Positions 3,331 to 60,360 of a stretch of DNA of 64,000 bases are shown here, one piece after another. The translations under genes and the position numbers were made by a program. Position 1 is the stretch's first letter. Every line of letters starts with the position of its first letter. The stretch spans positions 40,265 to 104,264 of the forward strand of contig JAXDBQ010000032.1 of NCBI GenBank assembly GCA_034678605.1, given 5' to 3'. This DNA comes from Patescibacteria group bacterium. GTDB lineage: Bacteria; Patescibacteriota; Minisyncoccia; Minisyncoccales; UBA5738. The notes under the pieces are model-generated. The model was not told where the DNA came from. It ran no database searches and worked only from the letters and a program-made list of their open reading frames with translations.

Positions 3331-3334
3331 AAAA

Positions 3335-3500
3335 GCGTAAAGCGTAAAGTGAAAAGCGCAAAGTAAGAAATACGGGAAGCGTAAAGCGTAAAGTGAAAAG
3401 CGTAAAGTAAGAAATACGGGAAGCGTGAAGCGTAAAAATTAAAGCGTAAAGCAAGAAACGCAAAGCGAAAAACGAAAAGTAAAATGCGGGCGCGAAAGGC
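3335..3500. repeat. Family-2 repeat with 59-bp tandem duplication (gcgtaaagcgtaaagtgaaaagcgYaaagtaagaaatacgggaa x2.3)
   Basis: Direct reading; the 185-aa track ORF 2906..3463 is a translation of this repeat. Confidence 0.7.
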
Positions 3501-4695: not shown

Positions 4696-4724
4696 TTGAC
4701 AAAATCACCAAAATATGCTATAAT
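4696..4724 (+). promoter_or_regulatory. Consensus sigma70 promoter TTGACA-17 nt-TATAAT
   Basis: ttgacaaaatcaccaaaatatgctataat; followed by a 5'-UTR hairpin agcgcactaatttgcgct and RBS GGGAGG at 4794-4799. Confidence 0.7.
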
Positions 4725-9724: not shown

Positions 9725-9960
9725 AGTAGTAAAATCAATATCGAATGTCGAATATCGAAATCCGAAACAATATCGAATATCAAAATTTTCAATATCAAAG
9801 GGAAAACAGGGGGCGAAATTTTATTTGCGAAAATCAAACAGCCAAATCAATATCGAATGTCGAATATCGAAATCCGAAACAATATCGAATATCAAAATTT
9901 TCAATATCAAAACGAAAACGGGATTTTAATTCAATACAATTAACGCAAAATTAACGCGGA
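9725..9960. repeat. Family-1 palindromic element containing an internal 65-bp direct duplication (period about 116 bp)
   Basis: caatatcgaatgtcgaatatcgaaatccgaaacaatatcgaatatcaaaattttcaatatcaaa occurs twice; only 2 long copies, so not CRISPR. Confidence 0.7.
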
Positions 9961-9972
9961 ATCAATACAAAA

Positions 9973-10335
9973 TCAGTCGGATTTTCTGACGATTGAACCA
10001 AAAATTTTCATCAATTCTTCGGCTTCTCGCAAAAGAATATTTTGTTCTTTTGCCAATTCTTGATTATTGCCATTATCGATCAATTTCAACCAATAACAAG
10101 TTTCTTTGGCTTCTTTGCGGCTGATTTTAACGCGCATATTGAAATCTTTTTTGCTCAACGCTTCGTTGGCTTCGATGTAATTGGCCCCGATTGATCCGGA
10201 AGATCGAGCGAGCTGTTTGATGTCTTCCAAATTTGAAACCGTGCGCGGCAATTTTTTCAAAAACAATCTTGTGTTTTTCGCGAACAAATAAGTTCTTTTT
10301 TCCAAGTTGTATGGTTTTGAATTTGTTTCAGTCAT
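9973..10335 (-). CDS. Four-helix-bundle protein (23S rRNA intervening-sequence protein family)
   Basis: GSIGANYIEANEALSKKDF...ISRKEAKETCYWLKL hallmark; 120 aa; flanked on both sides by family-1 repeats. Confidence 0.8.
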   Translation of the reverse strand: MTETNSKPYNLEKRTYLFAKNTRLFLKKLPRTVSNLEDIKQLARSSGSIGANYIEANEALSKKDFNMRVKISRKEAKETCYWLKLIDNGNNQELAKEQNILLREAEELMKIFGSIVRKSD

Positions 10336-10395
10336 TTGATATTTGAAAATTCGATATTGTTTCGATATTCGAAATTCGATATTCGGATTTGTGTT
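10336..10395. repeat. Family-1 repeat fragment
   Basis: aaaattcgatattgtttcgatattcgaaattcgatattcggattt. Confidence 0.6.
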
Positions 10396-19938: not shown

Positions 19939-20016
19939 GGAAGCGTAAAGCGTGAAGCGAAAAATACGGCGCCGCGTTTTTGTTTTATGTTTTACGTTTT
20001 TAGTTTCGCGCTTTTT
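19939..20016. repeat. Family-2 repeat (ggaagcgtaaagcgtgaagcgaaaaatacgg ... tttacgtttttagtttcgcg)
   Basis: Direct reading. Confidence 0.55.
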
Positions 20017-25845: not shown

Positions 25846-26005
25846 GAATTTTTAAAATTCGAATATCGAATTTCGAATATCGAAACAAGGTTCAAATTTT
25901 CAAAATTCAAATGTCAAAAACAAAAACTTGTTTCGAACATTTGATCATTTGAAAATTCTGATTTGTTTCGAATTTCGATATTCGTGCTTCGAATTTGTTT
26001 TAAAA
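25846..26005. repeat. Family-1 palindromic element
   Basis: ttcgaatatcgaatttcgaatatcgaaacaagg ... ttgtttcgaatttcgatattcgtgcttcgaa. Confidence 0.65.
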
Positions 26006-26811: not shown

Positions 26812-26879
26812 TTTTTTGTATTTTATTATTTTCTGCGGAAAATAAAATTATTGAATTTTTAATTTTGAATTTTGTATTT

Positions 26880-26917
26880 TCTCATTACTCATCAACTCAT
26901 TACTCATCAACTATCCC
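26880..26917. repeat. Family-3 tRNA-associated TCATCAACTCAT tandem motif
   Basis: ctcattactcatcaactcattactcatcaactatccc abutting tRNA-Lys. Confidence 0.6.
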
Positions 26918-27574: not shown

Positions 27575-27645
27575 GCGATATAAAAGAAAGCGTAAAGCGT
27601 AAAGTGAAAAGCGCAAAGTGAAAAAATTAAAGCAAGAATAATTAT
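27575..27645. repeat. Family-2 repeat in divergent promoter region (aaagcgtaaagcgtaaagtgaaaagcgcaaagtgaaaaaattaaagc)
   Basis: Direct reading. Confidence 0.6.
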
Positions 27646-34451: not shown

Positions 34452-34712
34452 TTTCAATATTAACCTGATAATTGTTAAACTCGACTTTAATGATTATGAG
34501 GTTAACATTAAAACGCAGTTATATTTTTTATCAATTTATTGTTGGAAAATATCAGTCAAAAGAGGCGTGGGTGGTGAATTTGTCGCTGGACGCCGAAATC
34601 AAGATCGGCCAAACCGCGGTGAAATTCCTGCCCTATTGGAAACTGCTGGTTTGAAATTTTTAATTTTGGTGATATGCCAAAATTCCCATTCTGTCGAATG
34701 GGAATTTTTAAT

Positions 34713-34743
34713 TTGACAATTGGGTTGCGGGGGGGGGTATTAT
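34713..34743 (+). promoter_or_regulatory. Promoter module TTGACA-19 nt spacer containing G9 homopolymer-TATTAT, with about 100-nt conserved A-rich leader; paralog at 54290
   Basis: tttgacaattgggttgcgggggggggtattat; leader aaaagtcaaaa..tcaaaagtgaagg..gatttttggaaacaatATG. Confidence 0.55.
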
Positions 34744-34838
34744 GGAGAAAAGTTAAAAGTCAAAAATCAAAATTCAAAAGTGAAGGTTAAAATTTATAAT
34801 TGCCAAAAAATCAAAATCATAAGATTTTTGGAAACAAT

Positions 34839-35126
34839 ATGGAAATACCTATGCCCGCCGATATTACAAATGAAAAAGAGAAAGTGGAGGCGGAGATTAA
34901 TTATTTGGAGCAAAGGGGTTTGTGCGTGCATGAAAAAACAATGGAAATGGAGGAAGATCTTAAAAAAATAACAAGCGCAATAATTGAAACCAATGATCCA
35001 GAAAAAAATCGTGAGAAATTTGATCGATTGATCGCGGAATTGGAGTCGTTGCATAAAGAGCAACACGAGATAAACGATTTGCTTTTGCAAAAAATCAAAG
35101 AAAAAAAGGAGCTTCTTTTTTCGTGA
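34839..35126 (+). CDS. Small charged coiled-coil protein, hypothetical
   Basis: Track ORF 34800..35126; ATG at 34839 aligns with the equivalent ATG position in the paralogous leader at 54441. Confidence 0.4.
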   Translation: MEIPMPADITNEKEKVEAEINYLEQRGLCVHEKTMEMEEDLKKITSAIIETNDPEKNREKFDRLIAELESLHKEQHEINDLLLQKIKEKKELLFS

Positions 35127-35203
35127 TGTTAATTTTGGATTGTTGTTAAAAAATCCGCGGGAATTGATTTTCGCGGATTTTGTATTATTTTATTTTCTGG
35201 TTT

Positions 35204-37554: not shown

Positions 37555-37626
37555 AATCGATAAAGTCGCGAGCGTTAAAGGCATTTTTATTTTGCGCTTT
37601 ACGCTTTGCGCTTTACGTTTAATTTT
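37555..37626. repeat. Family-2 repeat (tttgcgctttacgctttgcgctttacgttt) upstream of SPFH gene
   Basis: Direct reading. Confidence 0.55.
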
Positions 37627-48477: not shown

Positions 48478-48618
48478 CAGAATTAAATTCGAATATCGAA
48501 TATCGAAATCCGAAACAATATCGAAATTTAAATTTCCAAAACAAAAATTCGAGTTTCGTTTTGGTCATTTGGATTTTGAAAATTCGTGCTTGTTTCGAGT
48601 TTCGACATTCGAGCTTCG
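48478..48618. repeat. Family-1 palindromic element
   Basis: aaattcgaatatcgaatatcgaaatccgaaacaatatcgaaattt ... gtttcgagtttcgacattcgagcttcg. Confidence 0.65.
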
Positions 48619-50787: not shown

Positions 50788-51148
50788 TGGTGTGCATGGA
50801 TGGGATCGGACCATCGGCCGCAGCTTTATGAAATTGTTGCTACAATTTCCGCCAAAAATAATAATTAATTTGGGCGGTGGGCGCAGATGGACTCGAACCA
50901 TCGACCCCGGCTTTATGAAACCGTTATAGCGGTTTCCGCCATTATTTTAAAAATTCTGGTAGTGGGCGTGGAAGGGATCGGACCTTCGGCCCCCACTTTA
51001 TAAGAGTGGTGCTCTAACCACTGAGCTACACGCCCAGAATTTTTAAAATAATGTCATAAGAGCCGTGCTCTAACCGACTGAGCTATGCGCCCAAATTAAT
51101 TATTATTTTTGTCATAAGAGCTGTGCTCTACCACTGAGCTACACGCGC
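50788..51148 (-). other. Nested split-tRNA locus: outer tRNA halves (5' half about 51111..51148, 3' half about 50788..50853) enclose a middle tRNA (5' half about 51053..51092, 3' half about 50872..50940), which encloses an intact tRNA (50963..51035); each insert is flanked by a perfect inverted repeat
   Basis: Middle pair: acceptor GGGCGCA/TGCGCCC and anticodon stem CGGCT/AGCCG are complementary across the pieces; outer pair: anticodon stem CAGCT/AGCTG and acceptor 6/7 bp; inner IR ATTATTTTAAAAATTCT/AGAATTTTTAAAATAAT (17 bp); outer IR AAAAATAATAATTAATTTGG/CCAAATTAATTATTATTTTT (20 bp). Confidence 0.55.
50963..51035 (-). tRNA. Intact innermost tRNA, anticodon UAU (Ile-AUA reading), CCA not encoded
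   Basis: GGGCGTGTAGCTCAGTGGTTAGAGCACCACTCTTATAAAGTGGGGGCCGAAGGTCCGATCCCTTCCACGCCCA; anticodon stem CCACT/AGTGG, loop CTTATAA; T-loop TCCGATC slightly atypical. Confidence 0.6.
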
Positions 51149-53062: not shown

Positions 53063-53247
53063 TTAAAATTCAAGCACGAAGCGCGAAGCACGAAATCCGA
53101 AACAAATTCCGCGCCCGAGGCGCGTCCGCTTTCAGCGGAAAATTTTCAAAATTTAAATATCAAAACAAAAATACGAATTTGTTTTTATCATTTGAAAATT
53201 TGAATTTCGATATTGTTTCGATATTCGATATTCGATATTCGACATTC
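53063..53247. repeat. Family-1 composite palindromic element with central cgcccgaggcgcgtccgctttcagcggaaaatttt core
   Basis: cacgaagcacgaaatccgaaacaaattcc ... ttgtttcgatattcgatattcgatattcgacattc. Confidence 0.65.
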
Positions 53248-54078
53248 TTATTCTTGGTTGGTTGGTTCTTTTAACGACAGGAATACTTTGCCGTTGGAAA
53301 TTTCCACGATCCGGGCCGAGATTTTGTTGCCGATCTTGAAGTTTTCCGAAAGATTTTTGGTCATTTCGGCCGGAATTTGCGCGATCGGGATCAGGCCTTC
53401 GACCGCTTCGGCGCCAAAGCGCACGAAAATTCCGAATTCCATGATGCCGGTGATGTCGCCTTCGATTTCTTGGCCGTTTTTGTATTTCCGCAGGCGCTCT
53501 TCGCGCTGTTCCATTTCGGCCATCTTTTCCGACAAAATGATCTCGCCGGTTTTTGGTTTGAGGTTTAATATGCGCACCGAAAGGTCGGCACCCACGAATT
53601 TTTGCAGTTCGCGCAAGATCTTTTCCGGATCGCCGCCCATCACTTTGGGATAATGGCCGCTGGCCAATTGCGACACCGGCAAAAACGCGGGCAATCCCGC
53701 CACTTTGGCGATCAAGCCGCCTTTATTGGCGCCCGTGATCTTGATGCTCACCGGCGCGCGGTTTTCCGCCATTTCACGCAGTTCATCCCATACTAGTTTA
53801 CGCGTGGCGCCGCTCACCGACAATTCGATGTAGCCGTTTTCGTCTTCCAAGCTCACGATCTTGGCCGAGATCGGATCGCCTTCTTTGACGTCTTTGAGCC
53901 GGTCTTTGACTTCGTAGTATTCTTTGCCGCAAACAATACCGGTGCCGATGGCGCCCAAATCCACGTAAAGCGCGGATCGCTCCTGGGTGATCACCGTTCC
54001 TTTTACAATTTCTCCGGTTCGCGGAGGGTTAATTGACGCAACGGAAGCGCCGTTGCTTTTGTTGTTTTCTTTTGTCAT
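53248..54078 (-). CDS. S1 RNA-binding-domain protein (short ribosomal protein S1-like)
   Basis: Track ORF 53248..54114; three S1-like repeats (GEIVKGTVITQERSALYVDLG, GDPISAKIVSLED, GQEIEGDITGIMEFGIFVRFG); start moved to MTKENNKS. Confidence 0.7.
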   Translation of the reverse strand: MTKENNKSNGASVASINPPRTGEIVKGTVITQERSALYVDLGAIGTGIVCGKEYYEVKDRLKDVKEGDPISAKIVSLEDENGYIELSVSGATRKLVWDELREMAENRAPVSIKITGANKGGLIAKVAGLPAFLPVSQLASGHYPKVMGGDPEKILRELQKFVGADLSVRILNLKPKTGEIILSEKMAEMEQREERLRKYKNGQEIEGDITGIMEFGIFVRFGAEAVEGLIPIAQIPAEMTKNLSENFKIGNKISARIVEISNGKVFLSLKEPTNQE

Positions 54079-54119: not shown

Positions 54120-54290
54120 CGCACCCGTGTTTCGCATTCGCATTTTGTATTCGTAGGGGCGAAACTATGTTTTCGCCCGAATTGTATTTTTGCGTTGCAT
54201 CCGTAGGGGCGGCCTTTATGGCCGCCTTTTTACATAGGCGGAAAATCGGGCAACCACAAGGGTTGCCCTTACGAATGCAAATGCCGGATT
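54120..54290. repeat. Family-6 GC-hairpin repeats (GTAGGGGCGaaac..GCCCC; GGCGGCCtttaTGGCCGCC; caaGGGTTGCCCtt)
   Basis: Re-occur at 55490..55610 (inverted) and 56085..56180. Confidence 0.6.
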
Positions 54291-54320
54291 TGACTTTTGG
54301 GCTGCGGGGGGGGGTATTAT
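54290..54320 (+). promoter_or_regulatory. Promoter module TTGACT-19 nt spacer containing G9-TATTAT with conserved leader (paralog of 34713)
   Basis: atttgacttttgggctgcgggggggggtattat; leader carries gcgccggaggcgcattcgtcctttggcggaaaaaatcaaaagtcaaaagtgaaag ... gatttttgaaaaaatATG. Confidence 0.55.
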
Positions 54321-54440
54321 TAAGTCAAAAGTCTGCGCCGGAGGCGCATTCGTCCTTTGGCGGAAAAAATCAAAAGTCAAAAGTGAAAGTCAAAAGTAAT
54401 AACCGTCAAAAATCAAAACCCTAAAGATTTTTGAAAAAAT

Positions 54441-54791
54441 ATGTTTGAAAGGCCAAATGAATCGGAAAATGATCAAAGCAATCAAGAAGCAGGCGGCGAA
54501 AAATTTGAGCTGACGCCCGAAAAGGAAAAAGAGTTAAGCGATTTAGCTTATGTTTTTATAGACAAAGTTAGGGGCGATGCCGAAGGATTTAACGGGATGG
54601 ATGGTGCGGATGCCAGCATTTATCTGTTGAATGGCTATAGAGAAAATGGTATGGCGGGTGTTGAAGAAGCGATTTTAAATCTTTTGGATCGGGCAAAATC
54701 CAATCCGGCTTATAAGGGAACGCAATTTGAAACCGGCAAACATAATGAAGATTTGGCAAAAGCGATAGTTAGGGAAGGGATAAAGGGATAG
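54441..54791 (+). CDS. Hypothetical small acidic protein
   Basis: 116 aa; ATG placed exactly as in the paralogous leader at 34839. Confidence 0.45.
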   Translation: MFERPNESENDQSNQEAGGEKFELTPEKEKELSDLAYVFIDKVRGDAEGFNGMDGADASIYLLNGYRENGMAGVEEAILNLLDRAKSNPAYKGTQFETGKHNEDLAKAIVREGIKG

Positions 54792-54929
54792 AGTAATAAA
54801 ACAATAAATTAATATTACGGGGGTTGAACCCCTGTAATTTTTTGGTTGGGCGGGGGCGGGGCGGTAAAAGAGGTGATTTTTGCGTTTTTGGAAAATTTAT
54901 GTTATAATTTTTCTATTATCGTTTGACTT

Positions 54930-55035: not shown

Positions 55036-55323
55036 GTGATGAAAAAAATAAAAAACACCAAACAATACGGGTTGGCGCGGGTTTTTATTTTTCCGGCCGC
55101 GGGCAAATTCACGGCGGTTTGTTTGGATTTGGATTTGATCGAAGAAGCGGATTCGAAAAGCGAGGCGCTGGCGCAGATAAAAGAGGCGGTGAGCGGATAT
55201 CTTGCCAACGCGGTTAAAAACAATTTGGACTACGATATTTTGAATCGGCCCGCGCCGAAAAAATATTGGGATTTGTATCGAATTGATAGTTGCGCGGAAA
55301 GCGCCAATTTGTGTTTTGCTTAA
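55036..55323 (+). CDS. HicB-like (UPF0150) antitoxin-family protein
   Basis: YGLARVFIFPAAGKFTAVCLDLDLIEEADSKSEALAQIKEAVSGYL resembles HicB N-terminal RNase-H-like domain; no adjacent hicA found. Confidence 0.45.
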   Translation: MMKKIKNTKQYGLARVFIFPAAGKFTAVCLDLDLIEEADSKSEALAQIKEAVSGYLANAVKNNLDYDILNRPAPKKYWDLYRIDSCAESANLCFA

Positions 55324-56725: not shown

Positions 56726-56823
56726 CCTGATCTTCCGGTTCTTTTTTTATATAAACGCGCGAAGGGCTTCAATTATTCGCCAAATTTGCTACATTCAAAG
56801 TGTGTAAAATCTTATTTATTGTT

Positions 56824-59800
56824 ATGGAACAAAATTTCAATCAAAGAGAGGAAAGGACAATTAAATTTTGGAAGGAAAATAAAATTTTTGAAAAGTCGGT
56901 GAAGCGTGCCCCTAAACGCAAAAAAGAATTCGTTTTTTACGAGGGGCCGCCCACGGCCAATGCCAAGCCGGGGATCCATCATGTGGAGACGCGGGTGTTT
57001 AAGGACATGGTTTGCCGCTACAAAAACATGGCCGGTTTTCGCGTGCCGCGGCGCGCCGGCTGGGACACGCATGGCCTGCCCGTGGAACTGCAGATCGAGA
57101 AGAAATTGAATTTGCGCAACAAAAAAGAGATCGAAAAATTCGGCATCAAGGAATTCAACAAAGAATGCCGGGATTCGGTGTTCGAGCAGATCGGCGAGTG
57201 GCGCAATTTAACCGAGCGCATCGGCTATTGGCTGGATTTGGACAATCCCTATATCACCTACGACGCCCGTTATATGGAGTCGGTGTGGTTTATTTTGAAG
57301 CGGGCTTGGGAAAAGAAGTTGTTGTTCCAGGATTACAAAGTGATCCCTTATTGTTCGCGGTGCGGCACCGCGCTTTCCAGCCATGAAGTGGCGCAGGGTT
57401 ACCAAAAAGTAAAAGACCCGTCAGTGTTTGTCAAGTTCCGGATATTGAACCCGGAGGTCAAGAACGCGGCGCTGCTGGTGTGGACCACCACGCCTTGGAC
57501 TTTGCCGGCCAACGTGGCCGCGGCCGTGAATTCGGAAATGGATTATGTGAAAGCCAAGCCGAAAGAAGGAAGCGGCGAAGCGCTGATCCTGGCCAAAAGC
57601 CGATTGGAAATATTGGGCGAGGACTATGAGGTTGTTGAGGAAATGAAAGGCCAAAAACTGGTTGGTTTGCGCTACCAGGCGGTTTTTCCGGTCGAGCGCG
57701 AATCCGAAAAAACGATCTACAAAGTGATCGCCGCGGATTTTGTGTCGGCGGTCGACGGCAGCGGCATCGTGCATATCGCGCCGGCATTCGGCGCCGAGGA
57801 CATGGAGGTGATCCGCGGCCAAAACAAGCAGCTGCGGGAAAGCGGCCAACCGGAGTTTCCGGTGATCTTGAATGTTGCCGAAGACGGCGGCTTCACTTTG
57901 GAGGTGGCCAAGTGGGCGGGGATGTTTGTGAAAGATGCCGATCCGTTAATAATCAAGGATCTGGAAGCGCGCGGCTTGCTGTTCAAGACCGAGCCCTATG
58001 AGCACGATTATCCTTTTTGTTGGCGGTGCAAGACACCGCTATTGTACTATGCCAAAAAGAGCTGGTTCATCAAGATGACCGCGTTGCGCCAAAATTTGCT
58101 GGAAAACAACCAAAAGATCAATTGGGTGCCGGCGCATTTAAAGGAAGGGCGCTTTGGCGAATGGCTGCGCGAAGTGAAGGATTGGGCCATCTCGCGCGAC
58201 CGCTATTGGGGCACGCCTTTGCCGGTGTGGAATTGCGCTTGCGGCAACATTGAAGTCGCCGGTTCTTTGGGCGACCTGCTGGCCAAAAAATATTCGGCAA
58301 ACCGCTATTTCATCATGCGCCACGGCGAATCGCGCCGCCAGATTAAAAAGGTCTCTTCGTGCTGGCCCGAGGCCGAGCCGCTGCCGCTCACGGAAAAGGG
58401 CAAAAAAGAAGTTGCCGCGGCGGCCAAAAAATTGGCCAAGGAAAAGATCGATCTGATCATTGCCTCGGATATCTTGCGGACAAAGGAAACCGCGCAAATT
58501 GCGGCGCAGGCAACCGGCGCTAAAGTTGTTTTTGACAAGCGCTTGCGCGAGCACAATGTGGGCGAATTCAATGGCACCGATCCCAAGAATTTTTGGGAAT
58601 TCGCCAACGCGAAAATTGACCGGTACGCGGCCAAGCCCAAGGGAGGGGAAAGCTTGGTGATGGTGCGCAAGCGGATGTATGAATTTTTGGCCGAGATCGA
58701 CAAAAAATACCAAGGCAAAACAATTTTGCTGGTGGGGCATGAATTGCCGTTCACGGTTTTGGAGCATACTCTGAAGGGGATATCGCTGCCGGAGATCATC
58801 GAAAGCCGCTATTCGGGCAAGATCAAAAGAATTGTCACGGCCGCGGCCAAAAAGATCGAATTCAAGCAGCTGCCATTGAACGATGACGCTGAAATCGATC
58901 TGCATCGGCCGTTCATTGATGGCGTCAAGCCGGTTTGCGCCAAATGCGGCGGGCAAATGGCGCGCGCGCCCGAAGTGCTTGATTGCTGGCTGGATTCGGG
59001 TTCGATGCCCTTGGCCCAGGCCTATTGGCCCTTTAAAAAAGGCGATTCGCCGGCCAAGCCGGTAAAATTGTTCCCCGCGGATTTTATTTCCGAAGCCATC
59101 GATCAGACGCGCGGCTGGTTCTATACTTTGCTGGCCGTGTCCACCACCATGGGGTTTGGCGCGCCCTACAAGAATGTGGTGTCGTTGGGGCATGTTTTGG
59201 ATCAAAACGGCGAGAAAATGTCCAAATCAAAGGGCAATGTGGTCAATCCATGGGAGATGGTGCAAAAATACGGCGCCGACGCGGTGCGCTGGTATTTTTA
59301 CACGGTCAATGATCCGGGCGACCCCAAGCTTTATAACGAAAAGGATTTGGAGTTGGCGCAAAAGAAATTTCTGCTCACTTTTTGGAATTGCTATGTGTTC
59401 TTGAAAACCTACGCGCCCGCAATAAAAGCGCCGGCGACGATCGCGCCGGTCAATGTGCTGGACAAATGGATCGTGTTGCGGCTTCATTCGGCGTTGGCCG
59501 AAATCACCGATTGTTTAGAAAGATATGATATCACCCGTGCCGCCCGCAAAATAGAGGATTTTACGATCAATGATTTGTCGCTGTGGTATGTGCGCCGGTC
59601 GCGCCGGCGGCTGCAGCAGCCGCAAAGCCCGGCCGAACTAAATCAGGCGGCCAAGGTTTTTGCCTATATTTTGGCGAATTTGGCCAAAACCAGCGCGCCG
59701 TTTGTTCCGTTTTTGAGTGAGGAGATTTGGCAGGGATTGTCGGGAAATGGTTTTTCCAAATCCAAGTCAGTGCATTTGGAACCATGGCCCGCGGCAAATA

Positions 59801-60360
59801 AAAAAATGATCGATTCGGAATTGGAAAAGCAGATGACGCGGGTGCGCGAACTCACCGCGCTGGTTTTGGCCGAGCGGGCCAAGCATGGCGTGAAAGTGCG
59901 CCAGCCGCTGGCCAAGCTTGCGGTCGGCGGCCCTACCTTCGCCAAGGCTACGGCGGGCGAAGAAATAAAATTGGGCGATGAGTTGCGCGATCTATTGGCT
60001 GGCGAAGTGAATGTCAAAATCATTGAATTTGATCCGGAGCAAAAAACCGCGGTCGAGATCGATTGGAATATTACGTCTGAATTGAAAGAAGAAGGCAATA
60101 TGCGCGAAGTGATGCGCCAGATCCAGGAATTGCGCAAAACCGCCAAATTCACCCCGCAAGACAAGATCACCATTTACGTCCAAGCCGAAAGTGAGTTAAG
60201 GGCCGCGATCGAAAAACATCGGAAAATGATCGTCAAAGAAACCAAGGCCGCCGCGATTAAATTCGAAAAGCCGGCCAAGCCCGCGGCGCAAATCGAAGTC
60301 AAAATTGACGGTGTCTCTTTATGTCTGGGAATTAAGAAATTGTCATCAAAGTTGTTTTAA
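56824..60360 (+). CDS. ileS: Isoleucine--tRNA ligase (type-2) carrying an inserted histidine-phosphatase (PGAM-like) domain
   Basis: Track ORF 56800..60360; editing domain TTTPWTLPAN; WAISRDRYWGTPLPVWNC; DCWLDSG; KMSKS; the about 210-aa insert (about 58290..58910) has RHGESRR and LLVGHELPF catalytic-His motifs. Confidence 0.9.
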   Translation: MEQNFNQREERTIKFWKENKIFEKSVKRAPKRKKEFVFYEGPPTANAKPGIHHVETRVFKDMVCRYKNMAGFRVPRRAGWDTHGLPVELQIEKKLNLRNKKEIEKFGIKEFNKECRDSVFEQIGEWRNLTERIGYWLDLDNPYITYDARYMESVWFILKRAWEKKLLFQDYKVIPYCSRCGTALSSHEVAQGYQKVKDPSVFVKFRILNPEVKNAALLVWTTTPWTLPANVAAAVNSEMDYVKAKPKEGSGEALILAKSRLEILGEDYEVVEEMKGQKLVGLRYQAVFPVERESEKTIYKVIAADFVSAVDGSGIVHIAPAFGAEDMEVIRGQNKQLRESGQPEFPVILNVAEDGGFTLEVAKWAGMFVKDADPLIIKDLEARGLLFKTEPYEHDYPFCWRCKTPLLYYAKKSWFIKMTALRQNLLENNQKINWVPAHLKEGRFGEWLREVKDWAISRDRYWGTPLPVWNCACGNIEVAGSLGDLLAKKYSANRYFIMRHGESRRQIKKVSSCWPEAEPLPLTEKGKKEVAAAAKKLAKEKIDLIIASDILRTKETAQIAAQATGAKVVFDKRLREHNVGEFNGTDPKNFWEFANAKIDRYAAKPKGGESLVMVRKRMYEFLAEIDKKYQGKTILLVGHELPFTVLEHTLKGISLPEIIESRYSGKIKRIVTAAAKKIEFKQLPLNDDAEIDLHRPFIDGVKPVCAKCGGQMARAPEVLDCWLDSGSMPLAQAYWPFKKGDSPAKPVKLFPADFISEAIDQTRGWFYTLLAVSTTMGFGAPYKNVVSLGHVLDQNGEKMSKSKGNVVNPWEMVQKYGADAVRWYFYTVNDPGDPKLYNEKDLELAQKKFLLTFWNCYVFLKTYAPAIKAPATIAPVNVLDKWIVLRLHSALAEITDCLERYDITRAARKIEDFTINDLSLWYVRRSRRRLQQPQSPAELNQAAKVFAYILANLAKTSAPFVPFLSEEIWQGLSGNGFSKSKSVHLEPWPAANKKMIDSELEKQMTRVRELTALVLAERAKHGVKVRQPLAKLAVGGPTFAKATAGEEIKLGDELRDLLAGEVNVKIIEFDPEQKTAVEIDWNITSELKEEGNMREVMRQIQELRKTAKFTPQDKITIYVQAESELRAAIEKHRKMIVKETKAAAIKFEKPAKPAAQIEVKIDGVSLCLGIKKLSSKLF

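Follow-up and report, generated by a model that had tools for sequence, protein, structure and literature searches.

The window, by which we mean the whole 64,000-nucleotide stretch of DNA that was analysed, contains two short loci on the forward strand, here called locus A and locus B, at which a promoter-like core is followed by an A-rich leader and a small open reading frame. The original prediction had described TTGAC(A/T), a 19-nt spacer ending in nine consecutive G residues, TATTAT and an A-rich leader at both loci, and this description is correct; only the end of module A, given as position 34840, was off by one, since the start codon lies at 34839. The features of the two loci are as follows.

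34681-34709, + strand: terminator-like hairpin AATTCCCATTC / GAATGGGAATT followed by a T run, seen by direct inspection, closing the unit upstream of promoter A
34713-34718, + strand: -35 hexamer TTGACA of locus A, by direct sequence inspection
34719-34737, + strand: 19-nt spacer of locus A, ATTGGGTTGC plus G9, by direct sequence inspection
34729-34737, + strand: G9 homopolymer of locus A, abutting the -10; polymorphic site (G8 in 4 of 11 assemblies)
34738-34743, + strand: -10 hexamer TATTAT of locus A; putative start site near 34750
34745-34796, + strand: tandem array in leader A of about 7 copies of the heptamer YAAAAGT, from a tandem-repeat search
34803-34831, + strand: A/U-rich hairpin CCAAAAAAUC / GAUUUUUGG in leader A, from RNA folding, ending 7 nt before the AUG
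34839-35126, + strand: ORF A, 95 aa, predicted to fold as a helical hairpin, without a family match
35150-35191, + strand: intrinsic-terminator-like hairpin and T run ending the ORF A unit
54248-54268, + strand: GC hairpin GGGCAACC / GGGTTGCCC upstream of promoter B, by direct inspection
54290-54295, + strand: -35 hexamer TTGACT of locus B, by direct sequence inspection
54296-54314, + strand: 19-nt spacer of locus B, TTTGGGCTGC plus G9, by direct sequence inspection
54306-54314, + strand: G9 homopolymer of locus B, abutting the -10, by direct sequence inspection
54315-54320, + strand: -10 hexamer TATTAT of locus B; putative start site near 54327
54333-54363, + strand: GC-rich stem-loop with a 26-nt insert, in leader B only, from alignment and folding
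54365-54418, + strand: tandem array in leader B of about 7.6 copies of the heptamer AAAAGTC, from a tandem-repeat search
54406-54435, + strand: A/U-rich hairpin UCAAAAAUC / GAUUUUUGA in leader B, from RNA folding, ending 5 nt before the AUG
54441-54791, + strand: ORF B, 116 aa, predicted all-helical orphan
54814-54848, + strand: intrinsic-terminator-like hairpin and T run ending the ORF B unit

The two 31-nt cores (34713-34743 and 54290-54320) are identical at 29 of 31 positions, a match that was recovered in 0 of 100 shuffled sequences, and the pattern TTGACW-N17-21-TATTAT had no site in the 64-kb window besides loci A and B. The 19-nt spacer is out of the ordinary here. Consensus-like hexamer pairs in the window are separated by 17 bp at six sites, including TTGACA-17-TATAAT at 4696 and 45399 and another pair upstream of a tRNA cluster, and by 19 bp only at loci A and B. 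Counted together, the window's G and C runs numbered 49 at length 5, one at length 6 and two at length 9, with lengths 7-8 absent. Because a Markov model leads one to expect 8.2 runs of at least 7, and the only two seen were both G9, long G/C runs are avoided in the window except at loci A and B. G9 had also been called the longest homopolymer noticed in the window; it is indeed the longest G/C run, but three T9 runs equal it in length. Both loci carry a homopolymer of about 8 nt or more between the -35 and the -10, the arrangement known from porA and tp0126. Since TTGAC is invariant in all eight related modules, which come from five or more genomes, the view that the hexamers behave as a real sigma-70-type promoter is supported. 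Two other candidates for initiation were rejected: a start site within the G tract (reiterative transcription), as nothing resembling a -10 is found at a suitable distance upstream of it, and an internal promoter, TTCAAA-16-TATAAT at 34773-34800, which is not conserved in locus B, in L005 or in L150, two of the related contigs described below.

Because a hairpin lies upstream of each promoter and a terminator-like hairpin of its own, at 35150-35181 for A and 54814-54838 for B, lies downstream of each ORF, loci A and B look like single-gene units. An equivalent GC hairpin and T run precede the module in L005, L001 and L150. That each module is followed by a different small ORF held true: the 95-aa and 116-aa products are non-homologous, both are hydrophilic and without a signal peptide, and the coding overlap between the modules is confined to the first 3-4 codons. 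Searches of Pfam, PHROGs and NCBIfam with both ORFs and with seven further cargo ORFs from the candidate phyla radiation (CPR) returned no credible family, and all-against-all BLASTP of the cargo proteins detected no relationship except among ORF A orthologues. ORF A was predicted to form a helical hairpin (pLDDT 90) and ORF B a helical structure (pLDDT 71); comparison of the latter with the PDB yielded no fold match at E below 0.9.

Several other features of the window deserve a brief record. A 95-aa ORF downstream of locus B (55036-55323, + strand) has weak HicB-like antitoxin matches in PHROGs, at E 2e-7 to an unnamed family and 8.5e-4 to a HicB-like family. Between the S1 gene and promoter B (54140-54270) lie three successive GC hairpins with GTAGGGGCG / TTACGAATGC-like flanks. 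The isoleucyl-tRNA synthetase ORF (56800-60360, + strand) has two tRNA-synt_1 matches, and residues 504-666 between them carry a histidine-phosphatase domain, His_Phos_1. The window holds eleven tRNA genes in scattered positions; next to one of them, tRNA-Ile(TAT) at 50962-51035, a 56-nt unit with tRNA-like sequence (GAGCCGTGCTCTAACCACTGAGCTACACGCCC) is repeated 2.6 times at 51000-51146, which suggests partial tRNA duplications.

The A-rich leaders measure 95 nt at locus A and 120 nt at locus B. Their aligned identity is 77%, with a 26-nt GC-rich insert in B, and the modules as a whole are 69% identical. Both leaders end in GATTTTTG(G)AAA(C/A)AATATG, just as described earlier, and repeats are present in them as well, but what had been read as "TCAAAAGT units" is really a 7-nt tandem repeat, YAAAAGT, and part of a genome-wide habit of intergenic DNA; in leader A the repeat search counted 7.1 copies at 34748-34796. 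The A/U hairpin before the AUG is kept in all five close modules, and its outer pair, compared by eye, is C-G in locus A and L005 and U-A in locus B and both L150 modules. Leader B as a whole folds with z = -2.7; leaders A and L005 folded no better than shuffles (z about 0). At the gathering score, Rfam reported only tRNAs in the window, and at E of 1 or better its matches in the leader regions had E of 0.06 or worse, with scores far under threshold. A motif like the Shine-Dalgarno (SD) ribosome-binding sequence precedes only about a third of the long ORFs in the window, with A/T-rich DNA before most starts. Since most genes of the window lack an SD, leaders without one are normal for this genome.

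The heptamer arrays extend well beyond the two leaders. With a cutoff of at least 4 copies, the window contained 12 period-7 arrays (2097-2125, 2882-2910, 3331-3458, 9737-9893, 10334-10385, 19977-20006, 25855-25886, 26847-26883, 27586-27632, 37590-37622, 48488-48516 and 53206-53250, plus leaders A and B) versus 0 in shuffles. Other periods served as a control: 6 and 9-12 gave 0 arrays and period 8 gave 1. The units vary (AAAGCGT, TTCGATA/TCGAATA and relatives, AATTTTG, AAAAGTY). By position the arrays are intergenic, and several lie in the sense direction immediately upstream of genes. Similar arrays occur in L005, L007, L001, L056 and L133, and they recall the STRR heptamer repeats of cyanobacteria.

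We then compared eight related modules from five or more genomes: locus A, locus B, L005, L150A, L150B, L001, L056 and L087. The spacer is 19 bp in six of the eight (locus A, locus B, L005, L150A, L056 and L087); L001 and L150B alone have 18 bp. In the species represented by L005, an ORF A orthologue (P0004, 70% amino-acid identity) sits in matching surroundings, with recG on one side and a gene of about 511-513 aa on the other, behind the promoter TTGACA-TTTGTCGGCT-G9-TATTAT with its 19-bp spacer. Identity between the window and that species is 82% for the core and 81% for the leader; the corresponding values for ORF A, recG and the 513-aa gene are 79%, 77% and 74%, and the intergenic DNA just upstream, at 43%, is effectively unalignable. 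Because core and leader are conserved like genes while the upstream intergenic DNA stands at 43%, the core, the uninterrupted tract and the leader are under constraint. Two related species with genes about 75-84% identical both retain the G tract without interruption.

The contig L150 carries an ORF A homologue (P0006, 90% identity) and two modules 1.9 kb apart, TTGACA-TTGGCGGCT-G9-TATAAA and its G10 counterpart. The G9 module (L150B) has an 18-bp spacer, and the G10 module (L150A), whose non-G part is 9 nt, has one of 19 bp. The two are 92% identical to each other, 73-76% identical to locus A and L005A, and 64-66% identical to locus B. The non-G part of the spacer, the -10 variant and the heptamer unit are common within a genome and different between genomes, and this sharing within genomes indicates concerted evolution or recent copying. 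More distant relatives have the core TTGACTTTTGGGTTGC-G8-TATTAT (L001) and, in two Staskawiczbacteria contigs (L056 and L087), TTGACTTTTGGC[GA]TCT-G9-TATTAT; in each of these three, a long A/T-rich leader precedes a hydrophilic orphan ORF. The strict core TTGACNNTTGGGYTGCGGGGG...TAT had no match in species-representative genomes, which places this species outside that set, and matched one locus, L001, in metagenome contigs.

An apparent cassette swap was also seen in L150, where positions 962-1640, beside the S1 gene, correspond to 54267-54880 of the window. The leader end and ATGTTTGAAA, taking in the first codons, are 92% identical to locus B and the terminator region 85%, while the enclosed ORF encodes 140 aa rather than 116 aa and has no similarity to ORF B. 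The ORF A cassette in L150 lies 1.9 kb from this S1-adjacent module, not 20 kb away as in the window.

To follow tract length at a single locus we used assembly consensus sequences, which for locus A meant 11 assemblies. The tract was G9 in seven of them (the window, L015 (GCA_964551425.1), L016, L018, L019, L020 and L152) and G8 in the other four (L017, L021, L147 and L151); G8 was found in both PRJEB14051 samples and in two of the three ERZ272506xx samples. Within the orthologue set L005-L014, nine contigs had G9 and L011 had G8. In the short contigs (L016-L021 and L008-L014) the tract is the sole indel, among strains that differ by up to 33 SNPs. Locus B has G9 in the window and in L003. 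In L002 a T-to-G change at 54315 makes it G10, probably a miscall after the homopolymer, as a base change directly after such a run is a typical miscall. The L150 paralogues, G9 versus G10, differ as well, and two contigs, L148 and L149, stop 10-40 nt before the tract. At the level of assembly consensus, length variation among near-identical genomes, the trait expected of a porA- or tp0126-like promoter, was thus found, and the differences in G number could partly be sequencing or assembly error.

How widespread the design is was assessed by scanning one genome per species for TTGACW-N8-13-G8-TATTAT (G8 or longer), with spacers of 16-21 bp allowed. The scan returned at least 118 stretches with at least 119 sites, and because the design occurs at so many sites across many phyla it appears to be a general bacterial device. 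The matches listed include Treponema, Helicobacter, many Firmicutes, Mollicutes-like bacteria and Elusimicrobiota, together with Saccharibacteria and at least six other CPR groups. Among them, spacers of 16 to 21 bp were represented 14, 18, 38, 34, 8 and 7 times, a peak at 18-19 bp that departs from uniform (chi-square p = 2e-8; 7e-8 with duplicate families collapsed), and G runs ranged from 8 to 16 with a mode of 9. Some matches listed share identical flanks and differ in G number: 13, 13, 14 and 16 in Helicobacter, 9, 9, 9, 10 and 11 in a Bacilli family, and a difference of one in three further same-flank pairs. An ORF of at least 60 aa starts within 150 nt at 90 of the 119 sites listed, and 55 of those 90 ORFs have a hydrophobic, often lipoprotein-like, N-terminus. 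Many of the CPR matches listed have hydrophilic cargo without a Pfam match, the proteins being mutually unrelated. Versions of the motif with G5-G7 were absent from about 1 Mb of collected loci. A spacing control on viral contigs with N8-13, N18-23 and N1-6 gave only 1, 1 and 0 matches, too few for a comparison. Multi-copy promoter-leader families with G9-G16 tracts were encountered as well, in an uncultured Bacilli genome (L026, L044, L060, L065, L072 and L110), in Helicobacter (L073, L094, L112 and L129) and in Elusimicrobiota (L068 and L127). The genes behind them encode secreted or membrane proteins (pilin-like in Elusimicrobiota), and copies vary in G number.

Promoters of this general build are known, and the closest that have been studied are phase-variable. 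In porA of N. meningitidis, a poly-G tract in the -35/-10 spacer sets promoter activity; the 17-bp optimum is reached with G11, and the spacing shifts whenever a single G is gained or lost (PMC3899988; PMC7864442). Loci A and B likewise have a G homopolymer inside the spacer of a putative sigma-70-type promoter, but porA encodes an outer-membrane porin and has its optimum at 17 bp, whereas here 19 bp is the commonest spacing, the tract lies directly against the -10 and each cargo gene encodes a small hydrophilic orphan. T. pallidum tp0126 and the tpr genes E, G, J and L have G tracts of about 8-11 in or beside the promoter; the tp0126 optimum is the tract that brings the spacer to 17 bp, and the tprL tract is mostly G9, varies from G7 to G11 within isolates, and in a reporter gave higher expression as G8 than as G10 (PMC7864442). 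The likeness lies in tract lengths near G9 and in the TTGACW-Gn-TATTAT design itself, which is present in many Treponema genomes among the matches listed. However, tp0126 and the tpr genes encode outer-membrane proteins of a pathogen, and the tprL tract overlaps the -10 instead of setting the spacer. Judged by their architecture, loci A and B are candidate members of this known porA and T. pallidum kind of poly-G promoter.

A further parallel is provided by the vlp genes of Mycoplasma hyorhinis, in which a poly-A tract occupies the promoter spacer and a conserved 5' block is common to paralogues that each carry a different gene; a lipoprotein signal peptide forms part of the block, and the products are surface lipoproteins. 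Loci A and B are similar in having paralogous promoter-leader blocks that are near-identical within the genome, a homopolymer in the spacer and different genes behind it. They differ in that the vlp tract is poly-A and its block extends through the signal peptide, whereas loci A and B share 3-4 codons and no signal peptide. The uncultured Bacilli genome mentioned above offers a vlp-like analogue with the core TTGACAATACCACCCT-G9-11-TATTAT.

We consider it probable, at roughly 0.6, that loci A and B are sigma-70-type promoters in which a slippage-prone G tract tunes expression. Each locus would be a self-contained single-gene unit in which the promoter is followed by a 5' UTR (about 90-115 nt), a small orphan ORF and, at the end, a terminator; heptamer repeats and, just before the AUG, the conserved A/U hairpin lie in the UTR, which has no SD. 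G9 fills the -10-proximal half of the spacer and extends it to 19 bp, two more than the 17 bp of the other consensus-like promoters. Slipped-strand mispairing at replication would add or remove G residues, and a change of one G would reset the distance between -35 and -10, to 18 bp with G8 and to 17 bp with G7. Such a change in spacing may cause a heritable and reversible shift in promoter strength, and the population would then mix cells with different expression of ORF A or ORF B. The two modules of the genome would be kept alike by gene conversion or recent copying. We infer the start site, the effect of length on transcription, the "on" length and any benefit from the DNA sequence. The phase-variable reading put forward in the original prediction gains from the differing tract lengths of independent assemblies and from the wide distribution of the design, but not from the fact that 19 bp is the commonest spacing; these 19 bp, in six of eight modules, could equally be the selected working length. 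Selection for 19 bp rather than switching is suspected because L150A pairs its 9-nt non-G part with G10. Phase variation usually acts on surface proteins, and because the cargo here is hydrophilic and lacks a signal peptide, unlike the usual surface proteins, it counts against the switching reading.

The suspicion of a selected length leads to the main rival explanation, in which the G tract has a constant structural or recognition role, 19 bp together with a G9-10 block is the working geometry and the variants are mildly harmful noise. We regard this as unlikely. The geometry might be set by an unusual oligo(dG).oligo(dC) helix or by a factor that binds the spacer, and the rarity of 18 bp in the family (only L001 and L150B), the compensating G10 of L150A and a mode at 18-19 bp, not 17, among the 119 sites listed all fit it. 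A non-G spacer that is the same within a genome and differs between genomes is what co-evolution with a factor would give, but gene conversion accounts for the similarity within genomes without one. Nor does the G9-10 mode demand a fixed geometry, since mutational bias alone can produce it, as is known from Campylobacter tracts. Moreover, G8 in four of the 11 locus A assemblies is a high frequency for a harmful variant, and in several lineages paralogues or orthologues with identical flanks vary in G number. The promoters that have been studied, porA and tp0126, work best at 17 bp despite their G tracts (PMC7864442). A more deflationary account, that the modules are left over from a recent duplication, that the length differences are assembly errors and that G9 has no role, we hold to be highly improbable. 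Long G runs are the weakest spot of Illumina assemblies, and the contig ends of L148 and L149 and the likely miscall beside the run in L002 speak for this account. However, the core is still identical at 29 of 31 positions although leaders A and B have drifted apart (module identity 69%, with the 26-nt indel). The uninterrupted tract also persists at about 77% gene identity, where neighbouring intergenic DNA can no longer be aligned, and the window has hardly any other G/C runs of 6 or more. That G8 recurs in both samples of one project likewise speaks against error.

Good hexamers set 19-20 bp apart are the defining trait of MerR-family promoters, in which a regulator binds the over-long 19-bp spacer and twists the DNA to align the -35 and the -10. 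Loci A and B have the spacer length and the hexamers, but they lack a dyad-symmetric operator, and the variation in their spacer length presumably reflects slippage in a homopolymer. A search for inverted repeats found just two, CAATTG in A and a pair, TGACTT/AAGTCA, on either side of B, so that none is common to both spacers; for want of the dyad this explanation was rejected, and we find it scarcely credible. The non-G spacer also differs between related genomes, 18-bp family members exist, and no MerR-like gene was seen among the neighbours scanned. Control could instead reside mainly in the leader RNA, the heptamer array and A/U hairpin acting perhaps through an RNA-binding protein behind a strong, constitutive promoter. 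As the main mode of control this seems very unlikely to us, although it can coexist with switching by the G tract. The leader is conserved to the level of coding DNA, the hairpin is kept in five modules with one double change from C-G to U-A, and, SDs being mostly missing in this genome, leaders may carry initiation signals. On the other hand, leaders A and L005 fold like shuffles, Rfam gave no match, heptamer arrays with other units stand in many intergenic regions and are therefore not gene-specific, and the G tract would be left unexplained.

Returning to slippage-tuned promoters as the preferred reading, a broader picture can be sketched, tentatively and with considerable doubt: CPR bacteria with tiny genomes may possess a dedicated family of homogenised expression cassettes, each composed of a G-tract promoter, a heptamer-repeat leader, an A/U hairpin and a terminator, whose coding insert is freely exchanged and stochastically switched. 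The notion of an exchangeable insert arises because the S1-adjacent locus of L150 keeps the leader and terminator and has a non-homologous 140-aa ORF in place of ORF B. As an alternative, the near-constant 19-bp spacing may represent a distinct promoter geometry. Our searches of the literature on phase variation in CPR, Patescibacteria or Saccharibacteria found no relevant paper. The kind of promoter was already known; new here are its presence in this lineage, the hydrophilic orphan cargo and the homogenised modules.

Homopolymer-switched promoters are textbook examples from host-adapted pathogens, where they drive surface-antigen variation. The bacterium considered here is uncultivated, environmental and probably ultra-small, and the genes under control in this lineage are small hydrophilic orphans, not surface proteins. 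Its affinity to the CPR is suggested by the near-identical promoter cores of the Staskawiczbacteria contigs L056 and L087, by heptamer repeats that CPR loci also have, and by the scarcity of SDs. If the cassette picture is true, small, non-secreted orphan proteins, a set with rapid turnover, would be switched stochastically by the cassettes, and contingency-locus logic would reach the intracellular proteins of environmental symbionts, beyond the surface antigens of pathogens. CPR organisms are not culturable for genetics, and the design occurs in several of their lineages. If confirmed, the tract would offer an easy way to recognise bet-hedging genes of uncultivated bacteria from sequencing reads alone, and would point to orphan genes that matter for their lifestyle.
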